64,000 bases of DNA from Rhodospirillaceae bacterium (GCA_038114465.1 JAYNQW010000004.1:89528-153527), one strand, 5' to 3'; positions 3-58,322 are shown, counted from the first letter of the stretch. The notes: generated by a model not told the origin, from the sequence alone. Numbers and translations: made by a program.

Positions 3-878
3 CTCGGCATTGATTATGAATCCGTTAAAGCCGTAAACCCGGGTATCGTTTACGCCAGCATTTCCGGCTTCGGCCAGGATGGGCCCTATGTCAAACGGCC
101 CGGATTTGATCAAATCGCGCAAGGTGTCGGCGGTTTGATGTCGATCACCGGCGAGCCCGGCAAAGGCCCGATGCGGGTTGGCATTCCGATCTCCGATCTT
201 TGCAGCGGTTTATTTTGTGCCATGGGAATTTTATTGGCCTTGTTGCGCCGGGAGGAAACTGGTGAAGGCCAATGGATCCAAACCTCATTAGTGCAATCCA
301 TGGCCTTCATGCTTGATTTTCAGGCCGCCCGCTGGCTGATGAATGGCGAAGTCCCGCAGCAGGCCGGCAACCGCCATCCGACGGGAACGCCGACGGGCGT
401 CGTCGAAACCAAAGACGGGCACATTAATCTGGCTTCTTCCGGCAAGGTCATGTGGAAAAAACTTTGCATGCTGATGGAATTCGATGACTGGATCGATAAT
501 CCCGATTTCGCCGAAAGCAAGGATAGGTTTCGAAACCGGGAAAAAATATTTGATCGGCTAAACAAAACCATGCGCAAAGAAACAAGCGAATACTGGATCA
601 ACAAACTTAACGACGCGGGCATTCCGGCCGGTGCGATAAACTCCATCGATCAAACATTTAATGATCCGCAAGTGAAACATATCGGCATGTCGCAAAAAGT
701 TTCATCACCGGAGCTTGGTGAAATCGAACTTGTGGCTCAGCCGATTAAGATGAGCGACTCGACAAGCACGATTAACACACCGGCCCCTGAGCGCGGCGAG
801 CACACCGATGAAATTCTCACCGAACTGGGCATAAGCGCCGATGAAATCAAAGATCTACGGTCCCGAACCGTTATTTAG
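3..878 (+). CDS. CoA-transferase family III (CaiB/BaiF type), N-terminus cut by window edge
   Basis: The frame is open from base 3. The translation LGIDYESVKAVNPGIVYASISGFGQDGPYVKRPGFDQIAQGVGGLMSITGEPGKGPMRVGIPISDL aligns position-for-position with the full-length paralog at 10570..11763. Confidence 0.85.
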   Translation, partial: LGIDYESVKAVNPGIVYASISGFGQDGPYVKRPGFDQIAQGVGGLMSITGEPGKGPMRVGIPISDLCSGLFCAMGILLALLRREETGEGQWIQTSLVQSMAFMLDFQAARWLMNGEVPQQAGNRHPTGTPTGVVETKDGHINLASSGKVMWKKLCMLMEFDDWIDNPDFAESKDRFRNREKIFDRLNKTMRKETSEYWINKLNDAGIPAGAINSIDQTFNDPQVKHIGMSQKVSSPELGEIELVAQPIKMSDSTSTINTPAPERGEHTDEILTELGISADEIKDLRSRTVI

Positions 879-896
879 AGGAAAGGAATAAACGTC

Positions 897-1721
897 ATGG
901 CACCCGATGCAGTTGAAGAAATCGATGACATCGAAGAATATAATAAAATTGTTTATGAAACCGACGGTCCTGTCGCCAAAATTATTTTTAATAACCCTGA
1001 TCGCCGGAACGCCGTTTCGCCGGACATGATGCGGGCGGTCGACGCGGCCCTCGATAAGGTGATCGAGGACGATTCCGTTCGTGTGCTCGTGATTACCGGT
1101 GCCGGCGGCAAGTCATTTATCTCCGGCAGTGATATTTCCAAGTTTGACAAGCACCGTTCTTCACCCGAGCAAGTCGAAGCTTACAATCAACGCAGCAATC
1201 GCGTGCATGAAAAAATCGAGGGGATGGACAAGCCGACCATTGCCATGATCAACGGCTTTTGCATTGGCGGTGGCGCCGGATTTGCCCTCGATTGCGATAT
1301 CCGCATATGTTCAACGAAATCCCAATTTGGAATCCCGGCTGTTAAGCTGGGTCTTGGTTACCGGTATTCCAGCGTAAACCGCCTCTCCGAAATTGTCGGG
1401 CCTGCTTTTGCAAAGTTAATTTTGTTTACCGGCAGCCGGTTTACAGCCGAGGAAGCCTATCACATGGGCTTGGTTCACAAAGTCGTACCGGAAGAAGAGC
1501 TTGAAAGCACGGTGATGGAATTTGCCGAAACCATCGGCGGCAACGCGCCGTTAACGCTGAAATCCATCAAGACGATCATCAATAACATCGTTAAAGACCC
1601 GGACGACCGCGACATGGAAGAAGTCGAGCGTCAAATCGATGCGTGCTTCAAAAGCGAAGACTACATCGAAGGCCGCAAGGCATTCATGGAAAAACGCATT
1701 CCGCAATTTAAAGGAAAATAA
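897..1721 (+). CDS. Enoyl-CoA hydratase/isomerase (crotonase superfamily)
   Basis: 274 aa. Crotonase motifs VLVITGAGGKSFISGSDI and INGFCIGGGAGFALDCDIR. It starts 18 bp after the CoA-transferase stop and is a paralog of 9755..10543. Confidence 0.85.
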   Translation: MAPDAVEEIDDIEEYNKIVYETDGPVAKIIFNNPDRRNAVSPDMMRAVDAALDKVIEDDSVRVLVITGAGGKSFISGSDISKFDKHRSSPEQVEAYNQRSNRVHEKIEGMDKPTIAMINGFCIGGGAGFALDCDIRICSTKSQFGIPAVKLGLGYRYSSVNRLSEIVGPAFAKLILFTGSRFTAEEAYHMGLVHKVVPEEELESTVMEFAETIGGNAPLTLKSIKTIINNIVKDPDDRDMEEVERQIDACFKSEDYIEGRKAFMEKRIPQFKGK

Positions 1722-1730
1722 ATCACTCCC

Positions 1731-2789
1731 TTAAAGGGCGTCGACGATGGCCTGCCCGAGTTCCTGCGTGCTGGCCTTGCCGCCCATATCGGGCGTCATG
1801 GCAATCTTATCTTTAAGGACGATCTCGATTGCTTTGACAATTTGATCGGCCGCGTCCTTATGGCCGAGATGTTCAAGCATCATTGCCCCCGACCATATTT
1901 GGCCGATCGGATTGGAAATATTTTTTCCGGCAATGTCGGGGGCCGATCCGTGTACCGGCTCAAACATTGAGGGAAATTCTTTTTCCGGATTAATATTACC
2001 ACCCGGAGCAATCGCGATTGTGCCGGTTGCCGCCGGACCCAGGTCGGACAAGATATCGCCGAACAAATTACTGCCGACAACGACATCGAACCAATCCGGG
2101 TTGCGCACAAAATGCGCGGTGAGAATATCGATGTGAAATTGATCGGTTTTAATGTCAGGGTATTGCTCAGCAACCGCGGCGAACCGCTCATCCCAATAGG
2201 GCATGGTATGTTTAATGCCGTTTGATTTTGTTGCGGACGTTACATGTTTGGCCTCGCGTGATTTGGCAAGTTCAAACGCATATTTGATAATCCGGTCCGT
2301 CCCTTTACGCGTAAAAATGCTCAACTGCGAAACTTGCTCTTCATCTGTATCGGCGTACAACCGGCCGCCGATTTCAGAGTATTCCCCTTCATTATTTTCG
2401 CGCACCACATAAAAATCGATATCACCCGGCTTACGGCCTATGAGCGGACACGGCACCCCTTCGAAGAGACGTACAGGGCGCAGGTTCACGTATTGCTGGA
2501 ACTCGCGCCTGATCGGTATCAACAAACCCCACAACGAGACGTGATCCAAGACGCCCGGGAAACCGACAGCCCCGAGATAAATAGCATCATGACCCCGAAT
2601 TTGATCGAGTCCATCATCCGGCATCATCTGCCCGGTTTTAGCATAAACCTCGCAACTCCAATCGAACTCGTCCCAGGTAAAATTGATGCCTAATTTTCCA
2701 CCGATCGTATCCATAACGCGAATACCCTCGGGGACAACCTCCTTGCCGATGCCATCGCCGGGAATAACGGCAATTTTATAATCACTCAT
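1731..2789 (-). CDS. Tartrate dehydrogenase/decarboxylase-like (D-malate/tartrate branch of the isopropylmalate/isocitrate dehydrogenase family)
   Basis: 352 aa. Motifs IAVIPGDGIGKEVVPEG, YVNLRPVRLFEG and NLFGDILSDLGPA are typical of beta-decarboxylating dehydrogenases of the TtuC/DmlA type. Confidence 0.8.
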   Translation of the reverse strand: MSDYKIAVIPGDGIGKEVVPEGIRVMDTIGGKLGINFTWDEFDWSCEVYAKTGQMMPDDGLDQIRGHDAIYLGAVGFPGVLDHVSLWGLLIPIRREFQQYVNLRPVRLFEGVPCPLIGRKPGDIDFYVVRENNEGEYSEIGGRLYADTDEEQVSQLSIFTRKGTDRIIKYAFELAKSREAKHVTSATKSNGIKHTMPYWDERFAAVAEQYPDIKTDQFHIDILTAHFVRNPDWFDVVVGSNLFGDILSDLGPAATGTIAIAPGGNINPEKEFPSMFEPVHGSAPDIAGKNISNPIGQIWSGAMMLEHLGHKDAADQIVKAIEIVLKDKIAMTPDMGGKASTQELGQAIVDAL

Positions 2790-2821
2790 TTTATGTCCTG
2801 ATTACGGTTAAGCGTTTCGAT

Positions 2822-3607
2822 TTATTCTTCCGCGACAAAGGTATTGCGCAGCACACCGATATTGGTGATTTCAATTTCGCAAACATCGCCCGCTTTCATA
2901 TTGGGCGAAGCACCTTCCGCACCCATCCAAATCACATCGCCCGGATAGAGCGTCAGATAGCGAGTCATGGCGCTGATGTATGTCGGAATATCGAAAATCA
3001 TATTGTTGGTGGGAAATTCAATGGTGGTCTCACCATTGACCTTCACCGTGGTCGTTAATTTATCGAGATCGCCGACATCGGTTTCAATCCACGGCCCCAT
3101 AGGTTTAAAAGTATCCGTGTTTTTGCCGCGCCACATGGTGCGGTCACCCTTCTGCCAATCACGCTCACTGATATCGTTGCCAATGGTGTAACCGAATACG
3201 CAGGATAGTGCATCTTCCTTGGACAAATGCTTCGCTTTCTTACCGATTACGGCAACAATCTCACCTTCATAGTGAACCTGCTCACCGGCGTCTTTCGGAA
3301 TAACGACATTTTCCTCATGGCCGATCATGGCATTCACCGCGCGATATCCGATGTCAGGCTTTTCGGGGATGTTAGGCTCTTTGCCGATTCGTTTGGCGGT
3401 TTTGATCACATGTTCGGCGTAATTCAAACCGGCGGCATAAAAGGTCGGCGGAATGACCGGCGGCAGCCATTTGATATCATTCACGGAAACCGTATTGCCT
3501 GTTTTTTCCGGGTTTTCCCAGGGGATACCGTTCACTTCCTCAATCGTATCGCCGTCAACAATACCGTACGAAATTTTGCCCTTATGATCGTATCGCGCCC
3601 AACGCAT
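2822..3607 (-). CDS. Fumarylacetoacetate hydrolase (FAH) family protein
   Basis: 261 aa. FAH-fold motifs HYEGEIVAVIGKKA, GYTIGNDISERDWQ and PGDVIWMGAEG. Confidence 0.8.
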   Translation of the reverse strand: MRWARYDHKGKISYGIVDGDTIEEVNGIPWENPEKTGNTVSVNDIKWLPPVIPPTFYAAGLNYAEHVIKTAKRIGKEPNIPEKPDIGYRAVNAMIGHEENVVIPKDAGEQVHYEGEIVAVIGKKAKHLSKEDALSCVFGYTIGNDISERDWQKGDRTMWRGKNTDTFKPMGPWIETDVGDLDKLTTTVKVNGETTIEFPTNNMIFDIPTYISAMTRYLTLYPGDVIWMGAEGASPNMKAGDVCEIEITNIGVLRNTFVAEE

Positions 3608-4744: not shown

Positions 4745-4961
4745 AAATTTTTTGGAAGCCGATTAAGCATAATGATTAGGAATATAGGTGAAGGTATAGA
4801 ACCAGTCTGTTATTTTAAAAATGAAGAATTTTCTGTTCTCCGAGCAAATCAGCACACTGCCAATGCTCAAAACTTAAAAATATCAATTACTTCGGGGCTA
4901 TGCGAACCCGGTCCTGTTTATGGTACAGTGTTTTGGATAAGATAATTTGGACGGTACGATA

Positions 4962-5303
4962 ATGGCGCGTGGAGAAAACACACCCCCACCCCGGTATCAC
5001 GATCTTGGAGGACGCATGGCAGGTGCTATCGAAAAAACGGACCATATTCTCGAACCCTGGGAAAAGCGCGTCGATGTCCTGCGCAATCTTTTAGGGGATA
5101 AAACACGCCAAGTCCTAACAACAGACGAACTTCGCAACGCCATCGAAAACCTTGGCGAAAAAGCATACGATGATCATAGCTATTACGAACGTTGGATGGC
5201 GGCCTTGATGAATATTTTAAAAGATAAAGGTATGTTGACGCAGGACGAAATCGATCAACGCATGGCCGATATCCGTAGCCGCCTTGGTTTGGAGGAAGCA
5301 TAA
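4962..5303 (+). CDS. Nitrile hydratase beta-subunit N-terminal-half-like protein, copy 1
   Basis: 113 aa from the ATG at 4962 (the ORF track begins at a TTG at 4947). PPPRYHDLGG start, TTDELR and SYYERWMAAL resemble the first half of NHase beta. The stop overlaps the next start (TAATG). Confidence 0.75.
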   Translation: MARGENTPPPRYHDLGGRMAGAIEKTDHILEPWEKRVDVLRNLLGDKTRQVLTTDELRNAIENLGEKAYDDHSYYERWMAALMNILKDKGMLTQDEIDQRMADIRSRLGLEEA

Positions 5304-5650
5304 TGCCGAACCGCCCGCCACCACGTTATCACGATCTCGGCGGCCAAGATGCCGGACCGATTGAAATGGAAGAACACACCATCAAACCTTGGGTGCGCCG
5401 TTCCGATGCAGTCAAAAGCTTGCTATCCGATAAAAAGCGGCGTTTTTTAACAACTGACGAAACTCGCCACGAACTTGAAACCATGGGCGAAAACTTATAC
5501 TTCGGCTTGGAGTATGGCGAGCGGCGAATGATTGCGCTGATGAATGTCCTCACGAACAAAGGACTTCTAAGCCAAGAAGAGATCGATCAAAAAATTGAAG
5601 AAATATACGCACGCCTTGGTATCGAAAAGAAAATCGAGAAAAGCGCATGA
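5303..5650 (+). CDS. Nitrile hydratase beta-subunit N-terminal-half-like protein, copy 2 (possible beta-like accessory/activator)
   Basis: 115 aa. Paralog of copy 1 (RPPPRYHDLGG, TTDETR, EYGERRMIAL). It is translationally coupled on both sides (TAATG and ATGA overlaps). Confidence 0.7.
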   Translation: MPNRPPPRYHDLGGQDAGPIEMEEHTIKPWVRRSDAVKSLLSDKKRRFLTTDETRHELETMGENLYFGLEYGERRMIALMNVLTNKGLLSQEEIDQKIEEIYARLGIEKKIEKSA

Positions 5651-5931
5651 CAAACCAATTTAGTGTCGGTGATGAAATTATCGTTCGGGAGGCCTTCCCC
5701 CAGGGTCATATCCGCACGCCCCATTACATTCGAGGCAAAGAAGGCGTAATCACGGAAGTCCTCGGCGAGTACAACAACCCCGAAGAACTGGCCAAAGGCA
5801 TCAGAGATGCCCCGAAGAAAACCCTCTACCGGGTAAGGTTTGCACAAAAAACCGCTTGGCCGGATTACGATGGCCCTGAGAAGGATACGCTCGACCTCGA
5901 CATCTACGAGCATTGGCTCGAGGCAAAATAA
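5647..5931 (+). CDS. Nitrile hydratase beta-subunit C-terminal (SH3-like) half
   Basis: 94 aa. FSVGDEIIVRE, GHIRTPHYIRGKEGVI, LYRVRF and YEHWLE match the C-terminal domain of NHase beta. Confidence 0.75.
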   Translation: MTNQFSVGDEIIVREAFPQGHIRTPHYIRGKEGVITEVLGEYNNPEELAKGIRDAPKKTLYRVRFAQKTAWPDYDGPEKDTLDLDIYEHWLEAK

Positions 5932-5951
5932 AATACCAGGGAGAAAAATAG

Positions 5952-7253
5952 ATGACACACCCATCGGAGATGACCGTTCGCACCGCAAGGCAGGCCATTA
6001 AAAGCGGTCAACTCACATCGGAAAGTTTGGTGCGGGCCTATGCTGAGCGCATCGAAGAACGGGATGTCGACGTTAAAGCATGGGCATATTTTAATACCGA
6101 TCAGGCAATCGCCGCGGCCCAAGCCAGCGACAAGGCCGGGAACAAAGGTCCGATTGGCGGTATCCCTGTCGGCGTTAAGGATATTATCGACACCTTCGAT
6201 ATGCCGACCGAATACGGCTCACCCATTTTCAAAGGCAATCAGCCATCATCGGACGCAACCTGTGTTGCTTTAACGCGCGATGCGGGCGGTATCATCATGG
6301 GTAAAACGGCGACGACTGAGTTTGCCCATCAATTCCCGGCACCGACCCGCAACCCGCACAACACAGCCCACACGCCGGGGGGATCTTCAAGCGGCTCCGG
6401 CGCGGGCGTCGCCTCGTTCATGATTCCGCTGGCCTTCGGCACACAAACCGGCGGCTCGGTCATCCGCCCGGCCGCATTTTGCGGCGTCGTCGGCTACAAA
6501 CCGACATATGGCGAATTCGGTTTGAAAGGCGTGAAAGAAAACGCCCTGAGTTGCGATACCGTCGGCCTTTATGCCCGCTCTGTCGATGACATTGCTTTAT
6601 TCCGGGGGGCCTTATTGAAAAGCGATACGTCACCCCTGGCTGGAATTCCTTTGAATGGGCTCAAAATCGGTGTTTGCCGCTCTCATGCGTGGGACCAAGC
6701 CGACGAAACGACAAAAAATTGCATTGCCGAAGCAGCATCGCAATTATCCAAAGCGGGGGCAAACGTCAGCGATTACGACATGAGCGAAGCCGTCACCCTT
6801 TGTTCAAAATCGGCCAAAAGAACACGCAGTTACGAATTGCGGCGTTCCTTGGCTTATGAGTTCGCCAATCATTATGAAAAGATTAGTAAGGTTTGCCGCG
6901 AAGGTCGCCCAAAAGACGGCGAAAGTATTTCCCACGAACAATACCGCGAGGATCTCGCTCAAATGGCAAAATCCCGGTTGGCCTTTGCCGATGAAACCGC
7001 CGGGTATGACTTTCTCATCACACCATCGGCCACCGGCGAGGCGCCGAAAGGCTTGGAAACAACCGGCAATTCGGCCTTCAACGATATCTGGACGGCACTG
7101 CATGTGCCGACAGCCACAATACCGGCATTTAGCGGACCCAATAATTTACCCATCGGCCTTCAAGTTGTCGGCCATTACACACAAGATCAGCGGATGCTGG
7201 AGGCGGCACAGTCCGTTGCGTTCGCCCTCAATATTTACGAAAAAGCGGCATAA
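5952..7253 (+). CDS. Amidase (amidase-signature family)
   Basis: 433 aa. Amidase-signature stretch GGSSSGSGAGVA preceded by GIPVGVKD. It lies between the NHase beta pieces and the alpha subunit. Confidence 0.85.
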   Translation: MTHPSEMTVRTARQAIKSGQLTSESLVRAYAERIEERDVDVKAWAYFNTDQAIAAAQASDKAGNKGPIGGIPVGVKDIIDTFDMPTEYGSPIFKGNQPSSDATCVALTRDAGGIIMGKTATTEFAHQFPAPTRNPHNTAHTPGGSSSGSGAGVASFMIPLAFGTQTGGSVIRPAAFCGVVGYKPTYGEFGLKGVKENALSCDTVGLYARSVDDIALFRGALLKSDTSPLAGIPLNGLKIGVCRSHAWDQADETTKNCIAEAASQLSKAGANVSDYDMSEAVTLCSKSAKRTRSYELRRSLAYEFANHYEKISKVCREGRPKDGESISHEQYREDLAQMAKSRLAFADETAGYDFLITPSATGEAPKGLETTGNSAFNDIWTALHVPTATIPAFSGPNNLPIGLQVVGHYTQDQRMLEAAQSVAFALNIYEKAA

Positions 7254-7264
7254 AGGAATCGACA

Positions 7265-7912
7265 ATGGCAAGCCATGATCACGGCGACCATGATCACGAA
7301 CATGATCATGACAAAACATTTCAACCCGACGAGGAAGAAAGCCTCGGTCATTACGGTATTGCCGAAATGGCCGTGCGTGAACTGCTGCTTGAGCGCGGCG
7401 TTTTCACGGAAGATGAATTTAGATCGAAACTCGAGAAACTCGATAGCATTACGCCGGCGCTCGGCGCTAAGGTAATCGCCCGCGCCTGGACCGATCCAGA
7501 CTTTAAAAAGCGCTTGCTTGAAAACGGTTCCGAGGCGGTCAAGGACTTTGGTGTCGAGATGGGTTCGGTCGAGCTTTATGTCGTCGAGAACACACCCAAC
7601 GTTCACAATGTCATTGTGTGCACACTGTGCTCATGTTATCCGCGGCCCCTGCTTGGCGCACCGCCCGATTGGTACAAAAGCCGCAATTACCGGTCCCGCA
7701 CGGTCCGTGAGCCTCGTAAAGTACTGCAAGAATTTGGCACTGCTATATCCGATGATATTGAAGTCCGCGTGCACGATAGCGCCGCCGACCTGCGCTACTT
7801 GGTTCTGCCCATGCGCCCGTCGGGAACGGAAGATTATTCGGAAGAGCAACTCGAAGAATTGGTTAACCGGGACTCGATGATCGGCGTGACGGAAATCAAA
7901 TTTCCCCAATAA
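7265..7912 (+). CDS. nthA: Nitrile hydratase alpha subunit, cobalt type, with His/Asp-rich N-terminal extension
   Basis: 215 aa. Metal-binding VCTLCSCYPRPLLGAPPDWYKSRNYRSR (Thr in C-T-L-C-S-C indicates the Co type). C-terminal LPMRPSGTEDYSEEQLEELVNRDSMIGV. The N-terminus is MASHDHGDHDHEHDHD. Confidence 0.9.
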   Translation: MASHDHGDHDHEHDHDKTFQPDEEESLGHYGIAEMAVRELLLERGVFTEDEFRSKLEKLDSITPALGAKVIARAWTDPDFKKRLLENGSEAVKDFGVEMGSVELYVVENTPNVHNVIVCTLCSCYPRPLLGAPPDWYKSRNYRSRTVREPRKVLQEFGTAISDDIEVRVHDSAADLRYLVLPMRPSGTEDYSEEQLEELVNRDSMIGVTEIKFPQ

Positions 7913-8847: not shown

Positions 8848-9114
8848 ATGAATGAAAAAAAAGCAACCCCAGTCCTTTGGATGGAAGCAGACGGTTCCCC
8901 AATATCTTGCGAAGAAAAAATCAAGGTCTTGGACGAAAACCTGGAGGAAATAAAACAGGTTTGCCAGGATGCGTTCGAAGATGCCGTTCTGATGGGATGC
9001 GATGAAACAAAAGTGCGGGAAATATTTAAATCCGTTATTAGCAAAATTGACAATCCCTATTCACAACAAGGGCCGAAAAAAAATGCCGATAACAATAAAC
9101 CCGTTCGATGCTGA
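8848..9114 (+). CDS. Hypothetical small acidic protein
   Basis: 88 aa from the ATG at 8848, one base after the upstream stop. No recognisable motif. Its end overlaps the start of the RraA-like gene. Confidence 0.4.
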   Translation: MNEKKATPVLWMEADGSPISCEEKIKVLDENLEEIKQVCQDAFEDAVLMGCDETKVREIFKSVISKIDNPYSQQGPKKNADNNKPVRC

Positions 9115-9739
9115 AATAATTTCCGATGAAGAACTAGCTTTATGGAAAACCGTTCCTTCAGCCGTTGCTTGCGATGCCATGAACCGAACCAACGGCATGA
9201 TCGCTGATATCCAATCGCTTGTACCGGATACCATCCTCGCCGGTCAGGCGTTGACTGTCCACGCCCCCAACGGCACCAATGCACCGCTCCACCACGCCGT
9301 GAAATGCGCCTTGCCGGGTTGCATCCTCGTCATCGATGCCAAGAACCTCAGAGACAAGGCCGTTTGGGGAAGTGTTGTGAACGCTTATGCTCTGACTTGC
9401 GGCGTCAGAGGGCTCATCTTTGACGGCTGTGTGCGGGATACGGCATTACTCAAGCAATCAGATATGCCAATATTCTGCCGTGGTTCGGCACCAAACGGAC
9501 CAACAAAAGAAGAAGTTGGTGGCGTTAACATCCCTATCACCTGTGGCGGAGTCACGGTTCATCCCGGCGATATCATTATCGGCGATGATGACGGCATCGC
9601 CGTTATTCCCTTTAAAACGCGTCAACCGGTGCTTGAAAAGTGCCAAGATCGCATGGCGGAAAAAGAAGACTGGAAAAAGAAAACCCAGGACGGGGTTTCG
9701 ACGGCGGAACTTTGGAAACTTACCCCACCGAAATCATAG
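9083..9739 (+). CDS. RraA-family protein (4-hydroxy-4-methyl-2-oxoglutarate aldolase / oxaloacetate decarboxylase-like)
   Basis: 218 aa from the internal ATG at 9083. WGSVVNAYALTCGVRGLIFDGCVRD and GDIIIGDDDGIAVIP are typical of RraA/HMG-aldolase proteins. Confidence 0.8.
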   Translation: MPITINPFDAEIISDEELALWKTVPSAVACDAMNRTNGMIADIQSLVPDTILAGQALTVHAPNGTNAPLHHAVKCALPGCILVIDAKNLRDKAVWGSVVNAYALTCGVRGLIFDGCVRDTALLKQSDMPIFCRGSAPNGPTKEEVGGVNIPITCGGVTVHPGDIIIGDDDGIAVIPFKTRQPVLEKCQDRMAEKEDWKKKTQDGVSTAELWKLTPPKS

Positions 9740-9754
9740 AAAATTTTCCGTAGA

Positions 9755-10543
9755 TTATTTACCGATGAAATTGGGCTTGCGTTTTTCCATGAACGCCCGC
9801 CGGCCTTCGATGTAATCCTGACTGTCAAAACAAGCCTTCACCATCGCTTCGCAAGTTCCCAAGTCCCGGTCATCGTCGTTCTTGACAATCTCACCGACGA
9901 TTTTCTTGATGGAAGCAACCGTCATGGGGGCATTGCCGGCGATCGTTTCGGCATAATCTTTGACAAAATCATCCAGCTCGGCATCCGGGACCACGCGATT
10001 AACCAAGCCCATACTGGCGGCTTCATCGGCGGCAAAACGCTTGCCGGTAAAAAATATTTCTTTCGTATAGGCCGGGCCGACAAGATCGGTCAGTTGGCGT
10101 ACCTTATCAAAAGCATAGCCCAATCCCAGCTTGGCGGCCGGAATACCAAAGCTCGATTTATCCGTACAAATTCGAATATCGCAGCAAATAGCCACCGCAA
10201 CCCCGCCGCCGATGCAATAACCTTGAATCATCGCAATGGTCGGCTTTGGAAAATTATAAAGGCCAAAATAAGCTTTGCGCCCTACCTCATCGTATTTTTT
10301 GATAGCCTCTTCAGACGCGCGTTCATCTTCGAACTTGGAAATATCTGCACCCGACACGAACGACTTGCCGCCGGCACCCGTGACGACAACCACCCGAACG
10401 TCATCGTCGTTCTTGAACGTTTCCAGCGCTTCCGTCACGCCCTCCCACATTTCCATAGAAACGGCATTGTGACGCTCGGGATTATTAAAAATGATCTTCC
10501 CTATCCCGCCTTCTTTTTCCATGAGGATCTTATCGGTTGCCAT
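9755..10543 (-). CDS. Enoyl-CoA hydratase/isomerase (paralog of 897..1721)
   Basis: 262 aa. VVVVTGAGGKSFVSGADI and IQGYCIGGGVAVAICCDIR. Roughly half the residues are identical to the 897..1721 product by eye. Confidence 0.85.
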   Translation of the reverse strand: MATDKILMEKEGGIGKIIFNNPERHNAVSMEMWEGVTEALETFKNDDDVRVVVVTGAGGKSFVSGADISKFEDERASEEAIKKYDEVGRKAYFGLYNFPKPTIAMIQGYCIGGGVAVAICCDIRICTDKSSFGIPAAKLGLGYAFDKVRQLTDLVGPAYTKEIFFTGKRFAADEAASMGLVNRVVPDAELDDFVKDYAETIAGNAPMTVASIKKIVGEIVKNDDDRDLGTCEAMVKACFDSQDYIEGRRAFMEKRKPNFIGK

Positions 10544-10569
10544 ATTTCGGGTCCTTCCGGGCTTGAAAC

Positions 10570-11763
10570 TTAAATAACGTTACGAGAACGGAGTTCGGCA
10601 AGCTGCTCTTCGCTGAAACCCAAACCCGATAAAATTTCATCTGTATTCTCGCCCCGTTCAGGTGGGGCCACTTTTAACGCGCTTTTCGACCGGTTCATAC
10701 GGATGGGTTGCGGCACCAATTCGATATCACCCATCGCTTCGCTCTTGACCGTCTCGCGAATTTTCAAATGTTCGACTTGCGGTTCCGCAAACACTTGATC
10801 GATAGTGTTGATCGCACCGCAGGGAATACTGGCGTCATTTAAGCGCTTCAGCCAATACTCTGTTGTATTTTCGGAAAAAAGCTCGTTGAGATCATCACAA
10901 AGCTGGTCGCGGTTTTTATCGCGGGATGCACCATCGACGTACTTCGGATCATCAATCCACACTTCTTTGTCGACTTCTTTGCAGAACCGGGCCCAAATCA
11001 CATCGCCGGCAACACCGAGATTCATATGGCCGTCTTTGGTTTTAAATACACCGGTCGGCATACTTTGCGGATGATTGTTACCGGCCTGTCCCGGAATTTC
11101 CTGATTGACCAGCCAACGGGCGGCTTGAAAATCGAGCATAAAAATCAATGATTGCAAAAGTGATGTGTTGACCCACTGTCCTTTGCCCGATTTTTCCCGC
11201 TCGATGATGGCAAGCAAAATTCCGTAAGAACAGAAAATGCCCGAACAAAGGTCAGCGATCGGGATGCCCACACGCATCGGGCCTCGGCCCGGCTCACCGG
11301 TAATCGACATCAGGCCGGCCATGCCTTGCGCAATTTGATCAAACCCCGGGCGTTTCGCATCGGGGCCGTCTTGACCGAAACCGGAAATACTGCCGAGGAT
11401 AACCCGGGGGTTGATGGCGGCAAGCGTGTCATAATCGATGCCTAAGCGTGCCTTGACATCAGGCCGAAAATTTTCGACGACAACATCGGCGTCTTTCACA
11501 AGCTTCTTAAAGATTTCGAGTCCGTCAGGCTCTTTCAGGTTGAGCGTTAAGCTGCGCTTATTCCGCTGCAGATTTTGGAAATCCGGCGTATGCCGGGGCG
11601 CGCCCAAAGCGCCATCGGCTTCCAAGGCCGAGGGCATTTCAACCTTGATCACATCAGCACCCCAATCGGCAAGCTGGCGTACACAGGTCGGGCCCGAACG
11701 CACACGGGTCAGATCGAGAACTTTAATGTGGTCTAAAACATCGGCTGCAGGGACGTGTGGCAT
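10570..11763 (-). CDS. CoA-transferase family III (CaiB/BaiF type), full length
   Basis: 397 aa. VLDLTRVRSGPTCVRQLADWGADVIKVE N-terminus and GFGQDGP...GLMSITGEPGRGPMRVGIPIADL core. Paralog of 3..878. Confidence 0.9.
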   Translation of the reverse strand: MPHVPAADVLDHIKVLDLTRVRSGPTCVRQLADWGADVIKVEMPSALEADGALGAPRHTPDFQNLQRNKRSLTLNLKEPDGLEIFKKLVKDADVVVENFRPDVKARLGIDYDTLAAINPRVILGSISGFGQDGPDAKRPGFDQIAQGMAGLMSITGEPGRGPMRVGIPIADLCSGIFCSYGILLAIIEREKSGKGQWVNTSLLQSLIFMLDFQAARWLVNQEIPGQAGNNHPQSMPTGVFKTKDGHMNLGVAGDVIWARFCKEVDKEVWIDDPKYVDGASRDKNRDQLCDDLNELFSENTTEYWLKRLNDASIPCGAINTIDQVFAEPQVEHLKIRETVKSEAMGDIELVPQPIRMNRSKSALKVAPPERGENTDEILSGLGFSEEQLAELRSRNVI

Positions 11764-11840
11764 GGAATCTCCCAGTCACAATTTATTTTGATTTCAATTC
11801 GGCCTTTGTCATAGCCAATCTGCTGGGCCCTCGACAAGCC

Positions 11841-13229
11841 TTAAGCGCGAAAATCCTTCATATCCGCCAAATCGGGCTTCTCAAAAAGCGCTGAACACCA
11901 GGCTTGAAGAACATCAGCCTGCTGGTCCGACCAGCCGCCGAACAGGACATTGGCGCGGAATTTTGCCTCCAGTTCTTCGCGGGTCAGAGGTTCCTTCACA
12001 CCGCCCCGAAGATGGGGCTGACGGACCTCCCGGGTACTGCCGTCATCGAGAGTCACAATCAAATGTCCTGAATAATTCTTAGGGTATTCATCATTGGGGT
12101 CGATTTCGTAAGTAATTTTCGAGGCAAGCTCGAGCACCTTCGGATCGGTTGTTCGCTCCTCGGTGAACTGCTTGAGACCTGCAGCCTGATCGATAATGCC
12201 GATGGCCGAACAGAAATGTCCGCTGAACTTTGCCGAATACGGTGTCGAAGGTTTTTGCTTTTCCGCTTCAGGCTCCCACAACCGGTGCACGGTCCCTTCG
12301 CCGACTTTCGCGATAATACTTTTTACCTTCGACGGATCGAGGCCCTCACGGCCCAATTTCACGGCACAATCAATAAAGGGCTGGGTCATCGTACCGCAGG
12401 CGTATGGTTTGAAAGCCGCCCTTTCCATTAAAAATTCTTGGCCAAGGCCATCCGTGATCGGCGAGAAATCGTATTCATGGTCTGGGTCGCCGAAGGCAAA
12501 ATAGAAACCGTGCTCGCCTTCGAGGACGGTGCGCGGACCTAAAAAGCCCCCCCGGCCCATTAGTGCGGCGCGAAGGCCGCACTGCGCGGACCAACCTGGA
12601 TGCATCCGTTTGGTCCATGTACCTTCCGCCAGATATTCAATGATACCGGATGCCAAGCTGGCGGCGATGCCTAACGCATTGGTTAAGTCTTTCGCCGAAT
12701 AACTTAACGCCGAACTGACCGCCGCCGTCGTTCCCATGGCGCCGATCACGGCCGTCGGGTGAAACCCGGCCCGGTGCACTGTGGTTTGCGCGACCAAGGC
12801 CATGCGGCACATGAGTTCGCAACCGACCACGATACCGCGCAGCGCATCGGCGCCGCTGAGGTTATAGCGTTCGCAGGCGGCAAGGGTCGCTGCGATCACC
12901 GGGGCGCCGGCATGAACCGGCGTACCTTCAAACGTATCGTCATAATCTTCGCCATGAGCGGCAGTACCGTTAATTAACGCCGCGCCGGCTGCATCCAAGC
13001 CTTGGGCATGACCGAACGCCGTACAACCACCCTCACCGTCCCAAGTTGTCGCAATTGCCTTCACGTAATCTTCATTACGCGCGGCGACGCATAATCCGGA
13101 AATATCCAAGACTATTTCCGATGCCTTGTTCCGGGCGGCGGCGGAAATACCGTCATTTTTAAGTGATGCCGCAAAATCGGCAAATATTTGCGAGGGAGAC
13201 AGGCCGGATGCCAGCGTTTTATTGCTCAT
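11841..13229 (-). CDS. MmgE/PrpD family protein (2-methylcitrate dehydratase-like)
   Basis: 462 aa from the ATG at 13229; the ORF-track start at 13316 adds an unlikely 29-aa leader. PrpD-family length and composition. Same strand as the downstream CoA-transferase/hydratase. Confidence 0.75.
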   Translation of the reverse strand: MSNKTLASGLSPSQIFADFAASLKNDGISAAARNKASEIVLDISGLCVAARNEDYVKAIATTWDGEGGCTAFGHAQGLDAAGAALINGTAAHGEDYDDTFEGTPVHAGAPVIAATLAACERYNLSGADALRGIVVGCELMCRMALVAQTTVHRAGFHPTAVIGAMGTTAAVSSALSYSAKDLTNALGIAASLASGIIEYLAEGTWTKRMHPGWSAQCGLRAALMGRGGFLGPRTVLEGEHGFYFAFGDPDHEYDFSPITDGLGQEFLMERAAFKPYACGTMTQPFIDCAVKLGREGLDPSKVKSIIAKVGEGTVHRLWEPEAEKQKPSTPYSAKFSGHFCSAIGIIDQAAGLKQFTEERTTDPKVLELASKITYEIDPNDEYPKNYSGHLIVTLDDGSTREVRQPHLRGGVKEPLTREELEAKFRANVLFGGWSDQQADVLQAWCSALFEKPDLADMKDFRA

Positions 13230-13397
13230 GATGTTAATCTCTGCTGAATGACGGGAAAGTATTTGATGTGCCTTCGACTTTACCGAATTTAAGTACCTTG
13301 GCAAATGGAATTTCATCGATTCAGGCTGTATTCAAGCGATCGAACACTATAAAAAATAGTCTTTGGTATTTAGCTGAATTAATTCGAAAATTTTGAA

Positions 13398-54831: not shown

Positions 54832-54866
54832 AATTCCTTTCAATTTTAATCAAATTGAATGGAATT
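54832..54866. promoter_or_regulatory. Imperfect 15-bp inverted repeat upstream of selA
   Basis: AATTCCTTTCAATTT-TAATC-AAATTGAATGGAATT (one mismatch), about 90 bp upstream of the selA ATG in an AT-rich 390-bp spacer. Confidence 0.25.
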
Positions 54867-54954
54867 TTATATTTGTGATTCGACTTGCTTGACGATCCAA
54901 GTGATGAGCCCTAGCTTACACACGTCTCATAAACCGTCGGGACCGTGTGTACCC

Positions 54955-56388
54955 ATGACTTCCTCCAAAGCCGCTTTGGCTACCATCCCTTCTGTCGATG
55001 CTATTCTGAGATTGCCGTCTATTGAAGCGCTCATTGACACCCATGGGCGAGCGCTTGTAACCGATGCAGCACGGACGACACTTTCGGACCTTCGAAAAAA
55101 AATAACGGCAGAAAACGAATCGTCACAAATCGCCACGGACGAAGAATCGATATCGGCGGTGATATCAAGATTGTTGAAATCGTGGTCCGAACCCAGCTTG
55201 CAAAATGTTTTCAATCTTACCGGCACGGTCCTGCATACAAATCTCGGCCGGGCTTTGCTACCCGAAGTCGCCATCGATGCCATGGTGGCGGCCGGCCGGC
55301 AAGCATCCAACCTGGAATTTAATCTCGCAACCGGCAAGCGCGGCGACCGGGACGATCACTTCAACGAAATTATTTGCCGCTTAACGGGGGCTGAAGACGC
55401 GACGGTTGTAAACAACAATGCCGCCGCTGTCTTATTATGCTTAAACACTTTGGCTCTTCGTAAGGAGGTGCCTGTGTCGCGCGGGGAATTGATCGAAATC
55501 GGCGGATCGTTCCGCATGCCCGATATTATGAGCCGGGCGGGCTGCAAACTGATTGAGGTCGGCACGACAAACCGGACCCATCTGAAAGACTTTGAAGGCG
55601 CAATCAACGAACGGACGGCGCTTTTGATGAAGGTTCACACCAGCAACTATGCCATTGAGGGTTTCACCAAGGCAGTGCCTGAAAAAGAATTGGCCTCTCT
55701 CGCGCACAAAAACGATATTCCGTTTATCGTCGATTTGGGTAGCGGCACCCTGACTGATTTAACCCAATTCGGCCTACCGCACGAACCGATGGCCCAGGAA
55801 ACATTCGCTCAAGGCGCAGATGTCGTAACTTTCAGCGGTGATAAGCTTCTCGGCGGCCCTCAAGCCGGCATTATCGCCGGGCGGGCCGATCTGATCGCAA
55901 AAATTAAAAGCAATCCGATGAAACGGGCGATGCGACTCGATAAAGTTACGATTGCCGCCCTCACCGCCGTGCTGCAGCTATATTTGAATCCCGAAAAATT
56001 AGCGGAACGCTTGCCGACAATTAGATTACTTTCGCGGCCCCAGGATGAAATCAATAAACTTGCTGTTCAAGTACAACCGCATTTGCAAGATTGGCTTGGC
56101 CCCGATTTTCATACCACCATTGAGGATTGCCACAGCCAAATCGGCAGCGGCTCCCTGCCCTTGGCAAAACTGCCAAGTGCTGCTCTCGTTATTCGTTCTA
56201 AGGAGGGCAAACGAAAATCGGGTGCCTTGATGCGCCGTCTTGCCGATGCTCTGCGGAAACTCCCCTGCCCGGTGATCGGCCGCATTCAGGACAATGCGTT
56301 ATGGCTCGATCTGCGCTGTCTTGAAGATGAAGAAGGATTTGCCGCTCAGCTTTCCGCCAAACATGTTCCCATCGAGACGCAATCATGA
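54955..56388 (+). CDS. selA: L-seryl-tRNA(Sec) selenium transferase
   Basis: 477 aa from the ATG at 54955. IPSVDAILRLP N-terminus and the PLP-lysine motif FSGDKLLGGPQAG. ATGA overlap with selB. Confidence 0.9.
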   Translation: MTSSKAALATIPSVDAILRLPSIEALIDTHGRALVTDAARTTLSDLRKKITAENESSQIATDEESISAVISRLLKSWSEPSLQNVFNLTGTVLHTNLGRALLPEVAIDAMVAAGRQASNLEFNLATGKRGDRDDHFNEIICRLTGAEDATVVNNNAAAVLLCLNTLALRKEVPVSRGELIEIGGSFRMPDIMSRAGCKLIEVGTTNRTHLKDFEGAINERTALLMKVHTSNYAIEGFTKAVPEKELASLAHKNDIPFIVDLGSGTLTDLTQFGLPHEPMAQETFAQGADVVTFSGDKLLGGPQAGIIAGRADLIAKIKSNPMKRAMRLDKVTIAALTAVLQLYLNPEKLAERLPTIRLLSRPQDEINKLAVQVQPHLQDWLGPDFHTTIEDCHSQIGSGSLPLAKLPSAALVIRSKEGKRKSGALMRRLADALRKLPCPVIGRIQDNALWLDLRCLEDEEGFAAQLSAKHVPIETQS

Positions 56389-58322
56389 TTGTCGCAACGG
56401 CAGGACATATCGATCACGGCAAAACACTACTGGTCAAAGCCCTGACCGGGGTCGAAACGGACCGGTTACCGGATGAGAAGCGTCGCGGCCTGACGATCGA
56501 CCTTGGCTTCGCTTACCAAGATATCGGCCAAAAAGACATCTTGGGGTTTGTCGATGTCCCTGGCCATGAAAAATTCGTCCGCAACATGCTGGCCGGTGTC
56601 ACCAATATTGACTTTGCTCTTCTTATTGTTGCCGCCGATGATGGCGTGATGCCGCAAACGATTGAACACTTAGAAATTCTCAATTTACTGGGCATCAATA
56701 ACGGCGCTATCGTCATCACAAAAATAGACCGTGTTGAAAAAAACCGCGTTAACGAAGTCGATGATGAAATCGAACAGTTGTTACAAGGTTCAACATTGCA
56801 AAACGCTCCGGTTTTTTATGTCTCAGCGTTGACAGGCGATGGCATCGAGACACTTAAATCTTATTTATATGAGGCCGCCGAAACAACCGAACAACGGCAA
56901 TCCAAGGGTCACTTTCGTCTCGCCGTTGATCGTTGCTTCACGCTATCCGGTGCAGGCCTTGTCATCACCGGGTCCGTCTTTTCCGGTGAAGTACACAATG
57001 GTGATCAACTCATTGTTTCGCCGCACGGCATGCCGGCGCGGGTTCGCAGCCTACATGCCCAAAACCAGGAATCCGATACAGGGCACGCCGGGCAACGTTG
57101 CGCCCTGAATATCACGGGGCGCGACCTCAAAAAATCAGCCGTGCAACGTGGCGATTGGATTGTCTCTAAGCCCGCGCACATCCCCTCCGACCGCATCGAT
57201 GTTTATGTGAAGGTACTGGCCGGAGAATCCAAACCGATCCGCCATTGGACCCCTGTGCATATCCATATAGGTGCCGCCGACATATCGGGACGAGTCGCAA
57301 TACTAGAAGGCGGCTCAATCCCTTCGGGAGGGACCGGCTACGCTCAGCTGGTCTTGGATGAAAAAACCAATGTTCTTTTTGGGGACCGTTTCATCTTACG
57401 CGATCAATCTGCACGCCGGACGATCGGCGGAGGATATATACTCGATCCCTTCGCACCCAAACGCGGTCGAGCCCGGCCCGAGCGCCTCGAACAGCTGTTA
57501 GCAATGGATGACAAAGATCCAAAAACCGCTTTGGTTAAACTTTTAGAAGTTTCACCAAAAAGCATCCAAGTGAATCAGTTCCTTGCCGCACGCGGCATTA
57601 CGGAAGCAGAGGAAAATATCATCACAGAACCGGCGGATACGGTCATATTCGGATCTGATGAAAATCGCTTTGCCGCATCGAAAAATCATTGGGATGAATT
57701 AGGCGAAGAAATTAATGCCGTATTGAAAAAATGGCACAAAGAACGGCCAGAGAGCCCCGGGTTAACAGTTGAACAGATCAGAAAACGCCTGAGCATCCGT
57801 CAAATCGCCGGCGCGCTTGAAGCCGCCATTGAAACACGGGTTGCTGAAAAACATTTAACCCGTCATAGCGAGCTGATCAGCGTGGCAGGGCACAGGCCAG
57901 CCATTCCACCGCAAGAAGAGGCGCTGTGGAAACGCGTTCAACCGATCCTCGAAGAGGCCGGCATCAGACCGCCGACGGTCCGCGAGCTCGCAAACGTTCT
58001 CGACATGAAACCCGATCAATTGCAAAAATTTCTGGACCGTACCGCCCGGCGGGGGCTCGTTCAATCCGTCGCGAAAAACCGGTATTTCACGTTGAACGCG
58101 CTGAATGAGCTGGGGTCCATGGCACAGGAGTTATCCGAAGCCAACAACGGCGGGGCTTTCAACGCTGCCGCATTTCGCGACCGCTCGGGGATCGGCCGCA
58201 ATCTAACGATCGAATTGCTTGAACACTTCGATAAGGTTAAATTGACCAAACGCCAGGGAGACCTGCGCACTGTCGTTCAACCCGTCGATAAAATTTTCCC
58301 GACACCTACGGAGACTCCATAA
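56385..58322 (+). CDS. selB: Selenocysteine-specific translation elongation factor
   Basis: 645 aa. G-domain AGHIDHGKT, DVPGHEKF and ITKIDRV, plus a long C-terminal winged-helix extension. Confidence 0.9.
   Translation: MIVATAGHIDHGKTLLVKALTGVETDRLPDEKRRGLTIDLGFAYQDIGQKDILGFVDVPGHEKFVRNMLAGVTNIDFALLIVAADDGVMPQTIEHLEILNLLGINNGAIVITKIDRVEKNRVNEVDDEIEQLLQGSTLQNAPVFYVSALTGDGIETLKSYLYEAAETTEQRQSKGHFRLAVDRCFTLSGAGLVITGSVFSGEVHNGDQLIVSPHGMPARVRSLHAQNQESDTGHAGQRCALNITGRDLKKSAVQRGDWIVSKPAHIPSDRIDVYVKVLAGESKPIRHWTPVHIHIGAADISGRVAILEGGSIPSGGTGYAQLVLDEKTNVLFGDRFILRDQSARRTIGGGYILDPFAPKRGRARPERLEQLLAMDDKDPKTALVKLLEVSPKSIQVNQFLAARGITEAEENIITEPADTVIFGSDENRFAASKNHWDELGEEINAVLKKWHKERPESPGLTVEQIRKRLSIRQIAGALEAAIETRVAEKHLTRHSELISVAGHRPAIPPQEEALWKRVQPILEEAGIRPPTVRELANVLDMKPDQLQKFLDRTARRGLVQSVAKNRYFTLNALNELGSMAQELSEANNGGAFNAAAFRDRSGIGRNLTIELLEHFDKVKLTKRQGDLRTVVQPVDKIFPTPTETP

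Follow-up and report, generated by a model that had tools for sequence, protein, structure and literature searches.

A marine nitrile hydratase operon with a split beta subunit, two paralogous N-halves and a malonamidase-like amidase

The 64,000-nucleotide stretch of DNA analysed here (the window), from a Rhodospirillaceae bacterium (GCA_038114465.1, JAYNQW010000004.1:89528-153527), carries a nitrile hydratase (NHase) locus in which the beta subunit is divided into separate N- and C-terminal halves and the N-half is encoded twice, by the adjacent genes N1 and N2. Its sequence identifies the hydratase as a three-subunit cobalt enzyme with a split beta (N-half, C-half, alpha) and without a classical accessory gene, and the locus is one operon that is real, conserved and under selection. 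What is novel here is the duplication of the N-half, an embedded amidase resembling malonamidase E2 (MAE2) and a TroA-like partner; the enzyme type, a three-subunit cobalt NHase, was already known. With a probability of about 0.5, we favour a reading in which N2 would serve as another subunit of the beta-N type, docking on alpha and contributing a more polar, cationic pocket. The operon and its leader comprise the following features (ORF, open reading frame).

4745-4961, + strand: AT-rich intergenic leader, presumed promoter region; ~200 nt without ORFs between the divergent azlC and N1
4962-5303, + strand: N1, stand-alone NHase beta N-half (AnhD-like) with the ancestral-type presumed pocket Leu51/Tyr69/Trp72; PF21006, 66.6 bits; TIGR03888 positions 4-98 of 226
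5303-5650, + strand: N2, paralogous beta N-half with fixed derived changes; 115 aa; PF21006, 49.7 bits
5647-5931, + strand: C, stand-alone SH3-like NHase beta C-half (AnhE-like); 94 aa; PF02211, 80.8 bits; TIGR03888 positions 137-224 of 226
5952-7253, + strand: amidase-signature enzyme of the malonamidase E2 type; 433 aa; PF01425, 255.9 bits
7265-7912, + strand: cobalt-type NHase alpha with a His/Asp-rich N-terminus and a CSCYP-Arg motif; 215 aa; PF02979, 265.5 bits
7935-8846, + strand: TroA/BtuF-like binding protein, cytoplasmic, without a signal peptide; PF01497, 86.7 bits; NF038402 TroA_like, 24.3 bits (cut-off 30)
8848-9114, + strand: small Cys-containing ORF, 78-88 aa; conserved in loci L001-L004 (E = 4e-32)

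Organization and conservation of the operon

All five ORFs that a sequence-only reading of the window had delimited at 4947-7912 were recovered in place, and the TAATG overlap between N1 and N2 (5301-5305) and the ATGA overlap between N2 and C (5647-5650) are exact. N2, with a GGAGG ahead of it at 5291-5295, is translationally coupled to both neighbours, N1 and C. N1 itself measures 113 aa from its ATG (4962) or 118 aa from an alternative TTG (4947), the longer form being used in one NCBI record. The motifs quoted in that reading (PPPRYHDLGG, SYYERW in N1 versus EYGERR in N2, GHIRTPHYIRGKEG and VCTLCSCYP) are all present in the translations. Its assignment of N1 and N2 to the N-half, and of the third gene to the C-half, of an NHase beta subunit was borne out by the Pfam scan: N1 and N2 match NHase_beta_N alone (cut-off 21.5), C matches NHase_beta_C alone, the fifth gene matches NHase_alpha, and the scores of all five genes lie far over the gathering thresholds. 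On the NCBIfam beta model TIGR03888 (226 positions), N1 and N2 span positions 3-98 and C spans 137-224, and PDB beta chains align to C at residues ~120-225. The halves are separate ORFs, each with a start and stop of its own, in at least 9 loci. In the NCBI annotation of the marine Rhodospirillaceae metagenome-assembled genome (MAG), both N-halves are hypothetical proteins.

The amidase gene precedes an alpha subunit of the cobalt type, as had been proposed. The alpha motif VCTLCSCYPRP, read in the translation, aligns to the Co-NHase alphas PDB 4ob1 and 1v29; by the criterion applied to C-T-L-C-S-C-Y, Thr and Tyr denote the cobalt type, and Ser and Thr the iron type. This subunit far exceeds the PF02979 cut-off of 27.2, scores 249.7 bits against the equivalog model TIGR01323, 0.15 bits short of its cut-off of 249.85, and is named nitrile hydratase subunit alpha by NCBI. 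It is ~52% identical to a Streptomyces plasmid homolog, and members of the clade share its His-rich tail and a basic residue behind CSCYP.

The functional unit does not end with alpha, the last of the five genes originally listed, and runs on to the conserved TroA-like gene and the small Cys-containing ORF, which come next after alpha in all relatives of full length. The order N1, N2, C, amidase, alpha, TroA-like gene recurs, as far as the contigs reach, in loci L001-L005 and L098-L101; the clade with the N1-N2 order is narrow and marine, with about 10 loci and an invariant order. No terminator-like site was found on the + strand inside the gene cluster. Upstream of N1, a search for a riboswitch or structured leader returned no Rfam family and a fold that is not unusual (z = +1.3), and one weak sigma-70-like match (4934-4963) is not above shuffle expectation. 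In the searched literature, which omits most subscription journals, we found neither this gene order with assigned roles nor a description of duplicated N-halves or of an NHase paired with a malonamidase.

Divergence and constraint of the two N-halves

N1 and N2 share 53% identity across 107 aa (E = 4e-43); the sequence-only reading had recognized their paralogy and had put their identity too low, at ~40%. The N2-type family is tiny, with 8 clusters in the word-indexed search and four further short contigs in a metagenome scan, and N2 was never seen without N1 among the loci examined. In a neighbour-joining tree of N-halves, whose distance-based bootstrap values are rough, N1 and N2 form an exclusive clade (76%), the duplication having therefore arisen within the marine lineage, and the N2 orthologs group at 99%.

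Among 139 stand-alone N-halves aligned, six columns are invariant or nearly so, namely both Gly of HDxGG, Arg52, Glu56, Tyr63 and Tyr68 (residues are numbered after P. thermophila NHase beta by a sequence alignment made here), and N2 retains all six. Between orthologs, dN for N1 versus N2 is 0.139 versus 0.148, and 0.237 versus 0.218; with saturated dS (at least 1, or undefined), the only usable results are that selection is, qualitatively, purifying and that N1 and N2 have equal dN. By these alignments, N2 is a constrained, functional gene under purifying selection, and N1 is likewise under purifying selection.

Fixed differences separate N1 from N2 at 7 positions only. N1 carries the residue of single-N relatives at the Glu of the WEK motif (12/12), at Leu51 (10/12) and at Trp72 (12/12), and it is ancestral wherever the two copies differ fixedly and the single-N relatives agree. 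N2 has Val at the WEK-motif Glu, Thr at 51, Arg at 72 and Gly, Ala or Ser at 69, where N1 has Tyr69; judged against the relatives, N2 is the derived copy at WEK-Glu, 51 and 72. The N2-specific residues are invariant in seven N2 sequences with 73-81% identity. Positions 51 and 72 presumably line the substrate pocket, as they do in P. thermophila NHase. The change from SYYERW to EYGERR, to which attention had been drawn earlier, is real and is better described as a conserved remodelling of the presumed pocket positions 69 and 72. Both positions vary among single-N enzymes as well (YFERTT types; Arg72 in L087), and the changes in N2 are therefore compatible with catalysis and with its being the sole N-half.

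A second tandem duplication of the N-half, independent of the first and more recent, is present in an Alphaproteobacteria MAG (L023, 6871-8603), inside the L007/L016 clade with 100% bootstrap. Its second copy carries Ile55Thr, Tyr69His and Trp72Arg, the last of these convergent with N2 of the window. By eye, the two L023 copies are ~70% identical.

Weak similarity also connects N-halves with alpha. The last helix of the N-halves (N1 75-109, N2 73-106) weakly matches Pfam NHase_alpha positions 3-37 (E ~0.07-0.1), and the N-half profile weakly matches many alpha N-termini (window alpha residues ~33-60), which hints at an old segment shared between beta-N and alpha.

Spread of the split beta subunit and its precedents

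The split beta is not exceptional: the three-piece form is the prevailing architecture in a large, phylogenetically broad alpha clade, and the split beta itself is not novel. Scanning one genome per species with an alpha alignment as the query, we obtained at least 80 loci from Alpha-, Beta- and Gammaproteobacteria, Actinomycetota, Chloroflexota, Binatia, Nitrospinota and others. Layouts were assigned per locus with purpose-built N, C and alpha profiles in 95 sources, and the resulting counts describe a sample, not a census. N-C-A is dominant (67 of the 95); N-N-C-A is found in 9 sources (the window clade, L023 and three loci with fused N-N proteins), the permuted C-A-N in 5, N-C-A-N in 4 and N-A, as fusions, in 2. 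The only true extra N among the N-C-A-N sources is a P15K-like gene in L066, the other three being weak matches within alpha. Alpha homologs at 63-74% identity follow a single N-half and a C-half, in that order (L006 to L008), and the related P0213 locus has N, C, amidase and alpha with one N-half. A phmmer search with N1 against 1.84 billion representative proteins yielded 895 clusters, in which free-standing proteins 100-130 aa long predominate. Nearly all split-beta loci (the window, L001-L094) are marked by Arg or Lys directly after CSCYP, in most cases together with an alpha N-terminus rich in His and Asp; L079 and the canonical locus L090, with its full-length beta, have CSCYP-Trp.

A member of this group has been characterised in Streptomyces canus CGMCC 13662 (Guo et al. 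2019; 2020, PMC7329996), where the genes anhD (N-half), anhE (C-half) and anhA (alpha) occur without an activator gene. The native enzyme (ScNHase) is AnhD2E2A2, AnhD also forms an AnhD2A complex, with cobalt loading by self-subunit swapping, and the substrates are neutral neonicotinoids (PMC7329996). A 2026 review (PMC13243292) terms ScNHase a novel three-subunit NHase and puts it on one branch with the S. rimosus NHase; recent literature thus still treats as novel a form that prevails in a large clade. The window resembles S. canus in its separate N- and C-half genes followed by alpha, the lack of an accessory gene and a cobalt-type CTLCSC alpha, and the Streptomyces loci L026 and L091, which share the ScNHase layout, fall in the window's alpha clade and have CSCYP-Arg. 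The S. canus enzyme serves here as the mechanistic model of an N-half that is both subunit and chaperone. The window differs from it in having two N-half paralogs instead of one, an amidase between C-half and alpha, and a marine Rhodospirillaceae MAG as host.

The likeness to thiocyanate hydrolase (SCNase) and to ToyJKL, drawn in the sequence-only reading, holds, with SCNase the more distant; as a frame of reference the pair was incomplete, the S. canus enzyme being absent from it. SCNase from Thiobacillus thioparus (ScnB/ScnA/ScnC with P15K; PDB 2DD4) likewise has a split beta in the order N, C, alpha-like, a His/Asp-rich N-terminus with CSCYPRP, and a second, diverged N-half-like protein (P15K; P15K-like in L066); in the window, in contrast, the second N-half is encoded before C and not behind the catalytic subunit, and it retains motifs missing from the P15K-like protein. 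L066 (7262-9019, Actinomycetota) is itself apparently a genuine SCNase locus, with a long extension on the N-half, a C-half, a gamma subunit with an insertion, and a diverged N-half-like gene in the P15K activator position (Val68, His69, Ser72). ToyJKL of Streptomyces rimosus, compared by description and not by sequence, is likewise a three-subunit enzyme whose beta is divided between two small proteins, but has a single N-half and no amidase and is dedicated to a nucleoside nitrile in an antibiotic cluster; its gene order puts alpha first (toyJ-K-L). Plasmid pPag2 of Pantoea vagans (L090: amidase, nthA, nthB, accessory, cbtB, cbtA) shares the cobalt-type alpha, the amidase in the operon and a small beta-derived helper protein; it differs in its single-chain beta of 219 aa, its CSCYP-Trp alpha, the adjacent cobalt transporter genes and an accessory protein without HDxGG and Arg52.

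Several variant arrangements were encountered in the scans. The order C-half, alpha, N-half is found in L013, L022, L040, L057 and L089 (3634-4920); on the Rhizobium plasmid L089, the N-half bears the RefSeq name 'SH3-like domain-containing protein', apparently a mis-annotation, and an aquaporin and CbtB/CbtA come next. Natural fusions of N-half and alpha are joined by a His-rich linker (L017, 7668-8642; L020, 7620-8585; protein P0112), with no C-half detectable within 8 kb of them, and the L017 fusion lies 3' of an uncharacterised 776-aa ORF.

Fused N-N (NN) proteins make up more than 100 clusters, at 199-207 aa (L092, 6001-7486; L093, 6001-7479; L094, 6001-7476), and are hypothetical proteins in nearly all named NCBI/JGI entries. 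Their operons encode a thiamine pyrophosphate (TPP) enzyme, NN, the C-half, alpha (199-201 aa, without the His-rich tail), PxpB, PxpC, PxpA and an old yellow enzyme (OYE) oxidoreductase, and adjoin a Leu/Ile/Val-type ABC transporter. The NN protein keeps the YY(E/D)RW motif in both halves and is the sole N source of its NN-C-alpha operon; two N domains per operon are thus a structural design.

The amidase, a candidate pathway and the gene neighbourhood

The best PDB relative of the amidase is MAE2 (262 bits; query 13-420 against chain 8-404), with the next family at 134 bits; this MAE2-like nature is the best clue to the substrate and was missing from the sequence-only reading, which had registered the presence of an amidase. 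The likeness to the Bradyrhizobium japonicum enzyme (PDB 1OCK) runs end to end, with 40% identity over 395 aligned positions, and the HMMER alignment retains the Ser-cisSer-Lys triad (Lys62, cis-Ser131 in GGSSSGS, Ser155) and Arg158 (GGSVIRPAA). None of the NCBIfam amidase equivalogs reaches its cut-off with the window amidase, and no link of MAE2 to nitrile hydratase was found in the searched literature. We also considered a general link between MAE2-like amidases and NHases, which was not upheld; plasmid homologs adjoin hydantoinase/oxoprolinase-, polysaccharide-deacetylase- or xanthine-dehydrogenase-family genes.

In MAE2, Arg158 has a role in carboxylate binding. Because the window amidase retains this residue, its amide probably bears a carboxylate, and the physiological substrate is probably a small carboxylate-bearing nitrile. 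The pathway would lead from nitrile to amide and on to acid and ammonia, for example from cyanoacetate through malonamate to malonate and NH3, and a dicarboxylate product would pass to the CoA-transferases and crotonases encoded on either side. The flanks (135-3607 and 9755-13316) hold two pairs of CoA-transferase family III and crotonase-family (ECH) genes, together with tartrate dehydrogenase (TIGR02089, 549.7 bits, above cut-off), FAA-hydrolase family, MmgE/PrpD and RraA-like aldolase genes, a dicarboxylate-style neighbourhood that would suit the proposed product. CoA_transf_3 and MmgE/PrpD are neighbours in relatives as well, among them the more distant genome HT1-32.

Possible roles of the second N-half

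In the favoured reading, both N copies would be working beta-N-type subunits that dock on alpha; N1 would keep the ancestral hydrophobic pocket, and the pocket of N2 would comprise Thr51, Gly/Ala69 and Arg72. The preferred assembly would be an AnhD2E2A2-like particle with its N positions taken by N1 and N2 (alpha2 C2 N1 N2); alternatively, there could be two isoforms, one with N1 alone and one with N2 alone. With either assembly, one alpha/C pair would serve two different substrate pockets, and the N-halves would probably also aid cobalt loading by subunit swapping, as in S. canus.

Against the accessory model TIGR03889 (cut-off 46 bits), N2 gives no match at E <= 1 and N1 scores 23.8 bits, under the cut-off; all 139 related stand-alone N-halves match the beta model, and 58 of them match the accessory model (best E 5.6e-10). 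The canonical accessory protein of Pantoea (L090) lacks HDxGG and has Ser at the Arg52 position, both features being kept in N2, and it has no match in a six-frame translation of the window. The P15K-like protein of the SCNase-like locus L066 lacks HDxGG and Tyr68, and scores 34.7 bits against N1 and 14.1 bits against N2. Classical accessory-family membership of N2 was rejected on the absent TIGR03889 match and the retention of HDLGG, Arg52 and Tyr68.

Several observations weigh against the favoured reading or its substrate. The pocket role of positions 51 and 72 is presumed, from the P. thermophila literature and our sequence alignment. AlphaFold2, applied to a natural fused N-N protein to see whether two N domains would pack into a fixed module, gave a low-confidence model (pLDDT 60.5, pTM 0.57) with both N-terminal arms disordered. 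Retention of Arg52 and Tyr68 would be compatible with a chaperone role too, because AnhD does both jobs. The P0213 locus, the closest relative that has an amidase, has one N-half, and the pathway as such therefore does not depend on N2. MAE2-like amidases also occur in other contexts without an NHase, and the neighbourhood may in part reflect synteny among relatives, not a functional link. The Arg after CSCYP, which we take to be the analogue of Arg136 in SCNase gamma, was considered as evidence of an anionic substrate and dropped. It carries no such evidence because it is clade-wide, being present in nearly all split-beta loci, including the ScNHase-type Streptomyces loci, and ScNHase takes neutral substrates (PMC7329996). 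Finally, the AnhD2A stoichiometry is known from gel filtration only (PMC7329996).

That N2 is a metallochaperone had been one option of the sequence-only reading, the other being a four-component enzyme acting on a nitrile, thiocyanate or another substrate. Both are still viable, and the metallochaperone is the main rival of the favoured reading, though on balance unlikely. As such, N2 would be a dedicated maturation factor that arose by subfunctionalisation of the N-half, with N1 in the mature enzyme and N2 bound transiently to apo-alpha in a complex like AnhD2A, alpha-e2 or alpha(P14K)2, where it would aid cobalt insertion and cysteine oxidation before passing holo-alpha to the N1/C scaffold. 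AnhD of ScNHase is itself a self-subunit-swapping chaperone, the known Co-NHase and SCNase activators are small and beta-like, and L066 has its second diverged N-half-like gene, changed at 68, 69 and 72, after gamma. Derived changes at pocket positions, which recur in L023, would be affordable for a non-catalytic protein, and the window holds no other accessory or cobalt-transport gene. Family membership, however, lends this role no support: N1, not N2, has the weak match to TIGR03889 and is the closer of the two to the P15K-like protein, and N2 keeps HDLGG, Arg52 and Tyr68, which known activators have lost. N2 is also encoded between N1 and C, with translational coupling, and not after alpha; maturation proceeds with no second N-half in most of the alpha clade, also at the P0213 locus, which has the same amidase; and both halves of the fused N-N proteins keep the catalytic motifs.

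It is improbable that N2 is a redundant duplicate that differs from N1 neither in specificity nor in maturation role and has been kept for dosage or because the two drifted neutrally into an obligate N1-N2 heterodimer. The equal rates of N1 and N2, the small number of fixed differences and the existence of N-N fusions would fit this explanation, and if, as assumed from NHase quaternary structure, the particle has a two-fold core made of N-halves, duplication would easily convert this homodimer into a heterodimer. The fixed differences are nevertheless not random, two presumed pocket positions being among them; Trp72Arg arose independently in L023, and the N2-specific residues do not vary among the N2 sequences.

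A thiocyanate hydrolase (SCN- to COS and NH3) in place of a nitrile hydratase is highly improbable and was rejected on curated scores, the absent beta extension and gamma insertion, and the presence of the amidase: although the three-piece order, the His/Asp-rich N-terminus and CSCYPRP match SCNase gamma (PDB 2dd4_C, 199.6 bits, aligned from residue 5) and the best PDB match of N2 is SCNase beta, the alpha subunit scores 230.5 bits against TIGR03887 (cut-off 291.45), also below its NHase alpha model score, and is 53% identical to the SCNase-like gamma of L066 and has no insertion ahead of the metal motif, both N-halves pair with residues 48-143 of SCNase beta (157 aa) and have no counterpart of its ~45-aa N-terminal extension, CSCYP-Arg and the His-rich tail are clade-wide features, and an embedded amidase would have no role in thiocyanate hydrolysis.

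A more far-reaching form of the favoured reading is tentative and rather unlikely to hold as a whole. An alpha/C scaffold would carry two interchangeable or co-assembled specificity subunits, N1 hydrophobic and N2 cationic, giving an asymmetric alpha2 C2 N1 N2 NHase with two chemically different active sites; the N2 site and the malonamidase-like amidase would form a previously unrecognised marine assimilation pathway for a natural cyano-carboxylate such as cyanoacetate, and the convergent Trp72Arg would mark a repeatable evolutionary route to new NHase specificities.

NHases are major industrial biocatalysts whose engineering has centred on two-subunit enzymes with separate activators, and whether N2 is a specificity module or a nascent activator is relevant to that work. 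The N-half has been doubled repeatedly in nature, as separate paralogs or as fusions. If it is a swappable pocket module, it would offer a simple handle on substrate range that leaves the metal site untouched; if N2 is a specialised chaperone, the locus would show an activator arising from a structural subunit, as has long been suspected of NhlE, P14K and P15K. The malonamidase-like amidase in the operon further suggests where malonamate-type amides could arise physiologically, and that nitriles could supply marine Rhodospirillaceae with nitrogen.

Downstream genes and other features of the window

The TroA-like protein begins directly at its first beta strand and has several conserved Cys. 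Its gene follows alpha in L001-L004 and is confined to the window clade among the 95 sources analysed; plasmid-borne split loci, including those of Streptomyces and Rhizobium, have an aquaporin with CbtAB or HoxN at this position. Because neither CbtAB nor HoxN cobalt transporters were found in the window, the TroA-like protein could be a cytoplasmic cobalt or corrinoid handler. The small ORF at 8848-9114, whose Cys residues are conserved, matches no Pfam family, is called as a gene in L001-L004 and is likewise confined to the window clade. In the P0213 locus, a 76-aa unannotated gene follows alpha.

ARAGORN reported an 86-nt tRNA-Arg(GCG) at 9367-9452 inside the RraA-like ORF, which is probably a false positive because Rfam finds no tRNA in the window at gathering score. 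Farther along lie selA (54859-56388) and selB (56385-58322), with no tRNA-Sec gene detected in the window. They are followed by a stretch of low GC content (41-43% versus ~50%) that carries a gene for an Rce1-like protease and a tyrosine integrase gene (61506-63287), likely an integrated element.

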